Sequence record: MK327933.1
DNA length: 64,000 nt
Origin: Escherichia phage vB_EcoM_G2285
Reading direction: 5' to 3' (one strand)
Shown: in pieces, positions 5,696 to 7,266 of the stretch
Layout: every line of letters begins with the position of its first letter
How positions within the stretch are numbered: the first letter of the stretch is position 1
Notes under the pieces: generated by a model
The model's database searches: none
Told to the model about the DNA's origin: nothing
The model's input: only the letters and a program-made list of their open reading frames with translations
Made by a program: the position numbers and the translations under genes

Positions 5696-7231
5696 ATGAA
5701 ATTTAATATCTTAAGTTTGTTTGCTCCATGGGCAAAAATGGACGAACGTGATTACAAAGACCAAGAAAAAGAAAATTTAGAATCTATCACAGCACCAAAA
5801 TTGGACGACGGCGCTAAAGAATACGAAGTATCTGAAAATGAAGCACAGCAAACATATAATGCTATGTTTCAGAGAATGTTCGGTAGTCAAGAACCAGGGC
5901 TCAAATCAACCCGTGAATTAATCGATACATATCGAAATTTGATGACGAACTATGAAGTGGATAATGCGGTCTCTGAAATAGTTTCTGATGCTATCGTATA
6001 TGAAGATGATACAGAAGTCGTTTCCATAAATTTAGACAACACAAAATTTAGTCCAAATATCAAATCAATGATGTTGGATGAATTTAACGAAGTGTTGAAT
6101 CATTTATCTTTCCAACGTAAAGGTTCAGATCATTTTAGACGTTGGTATGTGGATTCTCGAATTTTCTTCCATAAAATTATTGACCCTAAACGCCCTAAAG
6201 AAGGTATTAAAGAGCTTCGTCGTTTAGACCCACGCCAAGTTCAATATGTCCGTGAAGTTATTACAACCACTGAAGCTGGTGTTAAAATAGTCAAGGGTTA
6301 TAAAGAATATTTCATTTATGACACATCACACGAATCTTATGCTTGTGATGGTCGCATATATGAAGCTGGCACAAAAATAAAAATCCCTAAAGCCGCGATT
6401 GTTTATGCCCATTCTGGTTTAGTTGATTGTTGTGGTAAAAATATCATTGGTTATTTGCATCGGGCTATTAAGCCAGCGAACCAATTAAAACTTCTTGAAG
6501 ATGCCGTCGTAATTTATCGTATTACTCGTGCTCCCGATCGTCGTGTATGGTACGTTGATACAGGTAATATGCCTTCAAGAAAAGCAGCAGAACATATGCA
6601 ACATGTTATGAATACGATGAAAAACCGTATTGCATATGATGCTACCACAGGCAAGATTAAAAACCAACAGCATATTATGTCGATGACCGAAGATTATTGG
6701 TTACAACGACGTGATGGTAAAGCAGTAACAGAAGTTGATACATTACCAGGTGCAGATAATACCGGAAATATGGAAGATGTACGTTGGTTCCGTAATGCGC
6801 TTTATATGGCTTTACGTATTCCTATTACCCGTATTCCAAGTGACCAAGGTGGTATACAGTTTGATGCTGGTACTTCTATTACACGAGATGAATTGACATT
6901 TGGTAAATTTATTCGTGAGCTGCAACATAAATTTGAAGAGATATTCCTAGACCCGCTTAAAACTAATTTAATTCTTAAAGGAATTATTACAGAAGATGAG
7001 TGGAATGATGAAATAAATAATATTAAGATAAAATTTCATCGGGATAGTTATTTCTCGGAATTAAAGGATGCTGAGATTCTGGAGCGTCGCATTAATATGC
7101 TTCAGATGGCCGAACCATTTATTGGTAAATATATTTCTCACAGAACAGCTATGAAAGATATTCTTCAGATGTCTGACGAGGAAATTGAACAAGAGGCTAA
7201 GCAAATTGAAGGATATTCTTCAGATGTCTGA
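5696..7231 (+). CDS. 20: Portal vertex protein gp20, C-terminus altered by a 55-bp tandem duplication
   Basis: 511 aa T4 gp20-like; ends ...[10 protein letters not shown] at a stop created inside duplicated copy 2; ancestral frame would run to the TAATG overlap with gene 67 at 7320-7322. Confidence 0.9.
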
Positions 7232-7266
7232 CGAGGAAATTGAACAAGAGGCTAAGCAAATTGAAG
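7157..7266 (+). repeat. Perfect direct tandem duplication, 2 x 55 bp
   Basis: 7157-7211 is identical to 7212-7266 (gatattcttcagatgtctgacgaggaaattgaacaagaggctaagcaaattgaag); 55 is not a multiple of 3. Confidence 0.95.

Follow-up and report, generated by a model that had tools for sequence, protein, structure and literature searches.

The 55-bp tandem duplication in the portal gene of Escherichia phage vB_EcoM_G2285 is best explained by an untrimmed assembler k-mer overlap

In the deposited genome of Escherichia phage vB_EcoM_G2285 (MK327933; 166,675 bp as deposited, 295.5x coverage, from Korf et al. 2019), the gene for the portal protein runs into a perfect tandem duplication that shifts its reading frame, and the question raised by this locus is whether the phage truly carries a shortened portal or whether the duplication came into being on the way from the sequencing reads to the database record. 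The window in which the locus was analysed is a stretch of 64,000 nucleotides of that record, and all positions given below refer to it unless another genome is named. An earlier note, made from the letters of the window alone, had left three readings side by side, namely a recent secondary event, an assembly artefact and a selected variant of the portal C-terminus. In our analysis the artefact gained support, from the length of the repeat, from its recurrence in sibling genomes and from control genomes of other laboratories, while both the recent biological event and the selected portal variant lost ground.

As deposited, the two copies of the repeat, found on the plus strand at 7157-7211 and 7212-7266, are identical 55-mers (GATATTCTTCAGATGTCTGACGAGGAAATTGAACAAGAGGCTAAGCAAATTGAAG) placed in direct tandem with no spacer, and Tandem Repeats Finder (TRF) describes them with a period of 55, 2.1 copies and a score of 223. 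Identity at period 55 extends over exactly 7157-7266 (110 nt) and is broken at either flank: the base preceding copy 1 is A where the last base of copy 1 is G, and the base past copy 2 is not the first base of the unit. The junction is consequently free of microhomology. When all 64 kb of the window were scanned for perfect tandem duplications (period 15-400), none came up besides that at 7157-7266, and as the sole structure of this kind in the window the repeat is far beyond what could be ascribed to chance. When the window was compared by BLAST with four relatives, the alignment broke at 7211/7207, with about 60 subject bases aligned twice. The coordinates of the repeat and the reading frames described in the earlier note are all right for the deposited sequence, and its view of the duplication as a secondary event was correct.

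The gene affected is clearly a portal gene of the T4 type. The open reading frame as deposited (gp20; 5696-7231, plus strand) encodes 511 amino acids, corresponds to QBO62599.1 and matches Pfam Portal_T4 (PF07230) with E=6e-195 and 648 bits (cut-off 22.9) over residues 73-505, a domain that is complete upstream of the repeat junction. Residues 1-509 align to the T4 gp20 chains in PDB entries 6UZC and 3JA7. The deposited protein ends with ...QIEGYSSDV, followed by a TGA stop at 7229-7231, which confirms from the open reading frame itself that the frame shifts inside copy 2 and that GYSSDV takes the place of the last 18 residues, as had been claimed. Readthrough or recoding at this position was considered and rejected, as a second TGA follows four codons past the one at 7229 (CGA GGA AAT TGA) and no sign of a programmed shift was seen. 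The leftover C-terminal open reading frame was sought in the protein collection as QBO62600, in the form of an exact product of either 45 aa (from TTG at 7185) or 32 aa (from ATG at 7224), and neither was found there.

Deletion of one copy in silico gives a portal of 523 aa, the TAA of which, at 7320-7322, overlaps the ATG of gene 67 (7322) as TAATG, so that the restored overlap foreseen in the earlier note was reproduced. The repaired protein matches the portals of vB_EcoM-RPN187 and others (P0011, on 7 contigs) at 100% identity. The true 3′ end of the portal gene, comprising 18 codons and TAA at 7266-7322 on the plus strand, is out of frame only owing to the extra 55-bp copy. When the portal C-terminus was compared with other T-even portals, the lost 18-residue tail proved invariant in 13 of the 13 full-length Mosigvirus and Tequatrovirus portals aligned, despite an overall identity of only 88% between the portals of the two genera. 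The deposited portal is thus without the conserved acidic C-terminal tail and without the TAATG overlap, and both are present after the redundant 55 bp are removed. In relation to T4 gp20 (PF07230; 3JA7, 6UZC), 5696-7231 represents a T4-type portal with 88% identity to Tequatrovirus portals; the deposited version differs in the missing invariant tail, and this difference is gone once the 55 bp are taken out.

The surroundings of the portal gene are also those of a T-even phage. The order 18-19-20-67-68-21 known from T4 is found in the window likewise, the open reading frames at this locus are T-even head genes, and gp21 matches Pfam Peptidase_S77. The window belongs to Mosigvirus (RB69-like), with 98.4% identity over 25 kb to vB_Eco_mar005P1 and 98.3% to APCEc01, and exact protein matches in vB_EcoM_G2285 were obtained for the portal (QBO62599.1), gp67 (QBO62601.1) and the tail sheath (QBO62597.1). 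Gene 67 itself, at 7322-7549 on the plus strand, encodes the prohead core protein of 75 aa (Pfam GP67, E=1e-21). In the deposited sequence the untranslated stretch before it, 7232-7321, is 90 nt long, in agreement with the approximately 90 nt reported previously, from which a disturbance of translational coupling to gene 67 had been feared. This concern falls away if the duplication is an artefact; furthermore, gene 67 has its own Shine-Dalgarno sequence, AGAGGA at 7310-7315. Apart from this, the codons for the acidic C-terminal tail of gp67 (7496-7548) form an imperfect triplet repeat of GAT, GAC and GAA, for which Tandem Repeats Finder gives periods of 3, 9 and 21. As the lengths of close gp67 homologues lie between 69 and 83 aa, this tail may be prone to slippage that alters its length.

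In regard to the distribution of the duplication among related phages, 703 phage records matched 6700-7700 (a 1001-bp query), and 664 of them cover at least 80% of the query and align across the locus. The best 40 of these 664 span 943-955 of the 1001 bases, which fits a single copy at this locus. No match to a 50-mer spanning the junction of copies 1 and 2 was found among 50,697 phage records, and a 31-mer over the same junction did not occur in the viral, metagenome or genome contig collections. No related phage naturally carrying the arrangement, which the earlier note had named as an observation that would speak against its interpretation, was therefore found, and the junction is unique to MK327933 among the collections searched. 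Likewise, the assembly collection has no contig on record that encodes the truncated portal, and those proteins specific to G2285 that were looked up occurred in NCBI only and not in the Logan run assemblies.

According to the source paper (PMC6563267), Illumina data were assembled with SPAdes 3.12.0 using the careful option and "55kmer", and circularly permuted T4-like genomes were re-arranged after assembly to match published phages. The length of the repeat, 55 bp, is thus the final k-mer size stated for the assembly. The available supplementary files of the same paper mention neither Illumina nor PacBio, and we infer from the 55-bp signature itself that G2285 is an Illumina rather than a PacBio genome. 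De Bruijn graph assemblers are known to give circular contigs the same k bases at both ends, for which Philipson et al. are cited, and the terminal k-mer overlap that SPAdes leaves on circular contigs has been documented for k=127 (PMC5923482). The repeat of G2285 resembles such overlaps in being a perfect direct repeat with a length equal to the final k (55), in occupying an arbitrary site that differs between sibling assemblies and in being absent from the genomes of other laboratories. It differs from them in its position, since the overlap is usually met at the ends of a linear contig, whereas here the two copies lie side by side inside a gene after rotation.

If the pipeline were the cause, sibling genomes of the same study would be predicted to show the 55-bp signature at other arbitrary sites, and this is what was observed when siblings were scanned for perfect tandem duplications with periods of 20-400, in the first 50 kb of G2469 and in the whole genomes of MM02 and WFbE185. 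Within the scanned extent, each of these three records holds a single perfect tandem duplication, always with period 55. In G2469 (MK327934) it lies at 35,687-35,797 and divides the gene for the sliding clamp gp45 into two overlapping CDS (742 = 687 + 55 bp), in MM02 (MK373784) it lies at 121,220-121,329 and divides that for the baseplate hub gp29 into two CDS (1828 = 1773 + 55 bp), and in WFbE185 (MK373778) it lies at 29,349-29,459, where a gene of 1686 bp is annotated as two CDS (1741 = 1686 + 55 bp). The same genes are whole elsewhere in the set: gp45 is intact in MM02 and WFbE185, gp29 is intact (1773 bp) in WFbE185, and both MM02 and G2469 have the 1686-bp gene unbroken. The G2285 window aligns as a single copy over the duplication site of MM02, and in the BLAST comparison of the two, the break at 7211/7207 in the window has a reciprocal break at the duplication of MM02. 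The sibling records begin at the same gene, and their ends are without overlap. On the other hand, the two control genomes of Mosigvirus produced elsewhere, TH58 (MT446423) and EP02SG (PQ301181), contain no perfect tandem duplication with a period of 15-400.

Details of the sibling duplications point in the same direction. The runs of period identity are 55, 56, 55 and 56 in G2285, G2469, MM02 and WFbE185, respectively, meaning that identity extends by 0, 1, 0 and 1 nt beyond the unit; such extensions are at chance level, unlike those of microhomology-mediated events. Moreover, gp45 and gp29 are essential in T4, and plaque-forming phages would therefore hardly carry the frameshifts that are present in the sibling records. 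The duplications of the three siblings are almost certainly the same pipeline artefact as that in G2285. The splits of gp45 and gp29 are far harder to square with viable phages than the portal case is: on first principles a shortened portal is not obviously lethal, so that the viability of the isolate by itself speaks little against a real variant at gene 20.

Taken at the level of G2285, the artefact is favoured because the repeat length equals the SPAdes k, because the same signature occurs in three siblings and because it is absent from genomes of other laboratories. We estimate the probability that the 55-bp duplication is a SPAdes k-mer end overlap kept on rotation, and not a portal variant, at about 96%. 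The sequence of events could be reconstructed as follows. Reads from the circularly permuted genome of G2285 would assemble as a circle, which SPAdes with a final k of 55 would report as a linear contig broken at an arbitrary point, in this case inside gene 20, its first 55 bases being the same as its last 55. The contig would then be rotated to the published T4-like gene order, a step stated in PMC6563267, and in the course of this its ends were presumably joined with the overlap left untrimmed, which would leave one perfect 55-bp tandem duplication at the place of the old ends. Copy 1 would thus represent the last 55 bases, or final k-mer, of the original contig and copy 2 its first 55, with the gene 20 site marking the probable end of that contig. 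Gene callers would subsequently read a frameshifted and shortened portal. Either copy can be regarded as the redundant one, and a single copy, chosen arbitrarily, is to be deleted. The real phage would, according to this scheme, have a normal portal of 523 aa with a stop overlapping the start of gene 67, and its genome would be 55 bp below the deposited 166,675 bp, that is 166,620 bp.

The alternative in which the stock of G2285 had acquired a genuine recent 55-bp duplication, and with it a viable portal where GYSSDV replaces the acidic 18-residue tail, has to be weighed against the scheme above. It is what the sequence as deposited encodes, and the Portal_T4 domain (73-505) ends before the junction, so the fold need not be lost. 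The head-to-tail arrangement with no spacer is also shared with natural duplications that arise by slipped mispairing or illegitimate recombination, and a TGAA found one base upstream of the start of each copy could be read as near-microhomology. However, a microhomology duplication through these motifs (7152-7155 and 7207-7210) was rejected, as it would give TGAA-A-GAT where TGAA-G-GAT is observed; the TGAA match cannot yield the observed junction, and microhomology at the actual crossover is zero. Natural duplications by slipped mispairing also differ from the present one in that here the length coincides with a software parameter and recurs unchanged at unrelated loci of siblings. A genuine origin would have to accept the agreement with the assembler k (55) as a coincidence and, given the three siblings, would need four independent events of identical length; it would likewise have to accommodate the loss of a tail invariant in the 13 aligned T-even portals and a junction found in no other record or contig searched. 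We consider it very unlikely. Were the duplication physically real, a viable T-even phage would be assembling and packaging its DNA without the invariant portal tail, and the tail would be dispensable.

Still less credible is an intermediate situation, where a minority variant, or a chimera from library preparation or PCR, was present in some of the reads and was picked as the consensus. Tandem duplications do occur in T-even stocks in general, but nothing specific to this locus speaks for the idea. At 295x one would hardly expect SPAdes, run with the careful option, to favour a minority path, and neither the exact 55 bp nor the recurrence in siblings is explained by it. The retained k-mer overlap accounts for both.

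With the duplication understood as a retained k-mer overlap, the locus is of no biological importance and becomes a matter of data hygiene. MK327933 then contains 55 bp too many, and the portal deposited as QBO62599.1 is falsely shortened. In protein data clustered at 90% identity, QBO62599.1 sits in a cluster of 10 members and the repaired intact sequence in a separate one of 343 members. At least four GenBank records call for correction (MK327933, MK327934, MK373784 and MK373778), and the pipeline error may touch more of the about 30 T4-like genomes in the study. Among the usual k sizes of SPAdes are the default values 21, 33, 77 and 99. As a rule for scanning circularly permuted phage genomes, a perfect tandem duplication of 21, 33, 55, 77, 99 or 127 bp should first raise the suspicion of an assembler k-mer overlap.

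Some further features of the window concern other genes. Two insertions relative to MM02, WFbE185 and TH58 resemble T4-type mobile introns. The td gene for thymidylate synthase is split on the minus strand into 47602-48153 and 46277-46591, which flank a 245-aa open reading frame (46736-47473) that contains GIY-YIG, I-TevI zinc-finger and I-TevI DNA-binding domains; MM02, WFbE185 and TH58 lack this insertion, which looks like a group I intron of the T4 td type that carries a homing endonuclease similar to I-TevI. The nrdB gene for ribonucleotide reductase beta is also split on the minus strand, into 42948-43625 and 41358-41891, around a 269-aa HNH open reading frame (41996-42805), an insertion that MM02 and TH58 lack and that resembles the nrdB intron of T-even phages with its I-TevIII. 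A search of Rfam for group I introns gave no hit at the gathering threshold. Finally, within an open reading frame of 1048 aa (58568-61714, plus strand), a segment of about 2.5 kb (59073-61565) has no megablast match longer than 400 bp in MM02, EP02SG or TH58 and only a partial match of 80% in WFbE185. Judged by its position, this open reading frame would be the distal long tail fibre gene (gp37), in which case 59073-61565 would be the expected hypervariable receptor-binding region.
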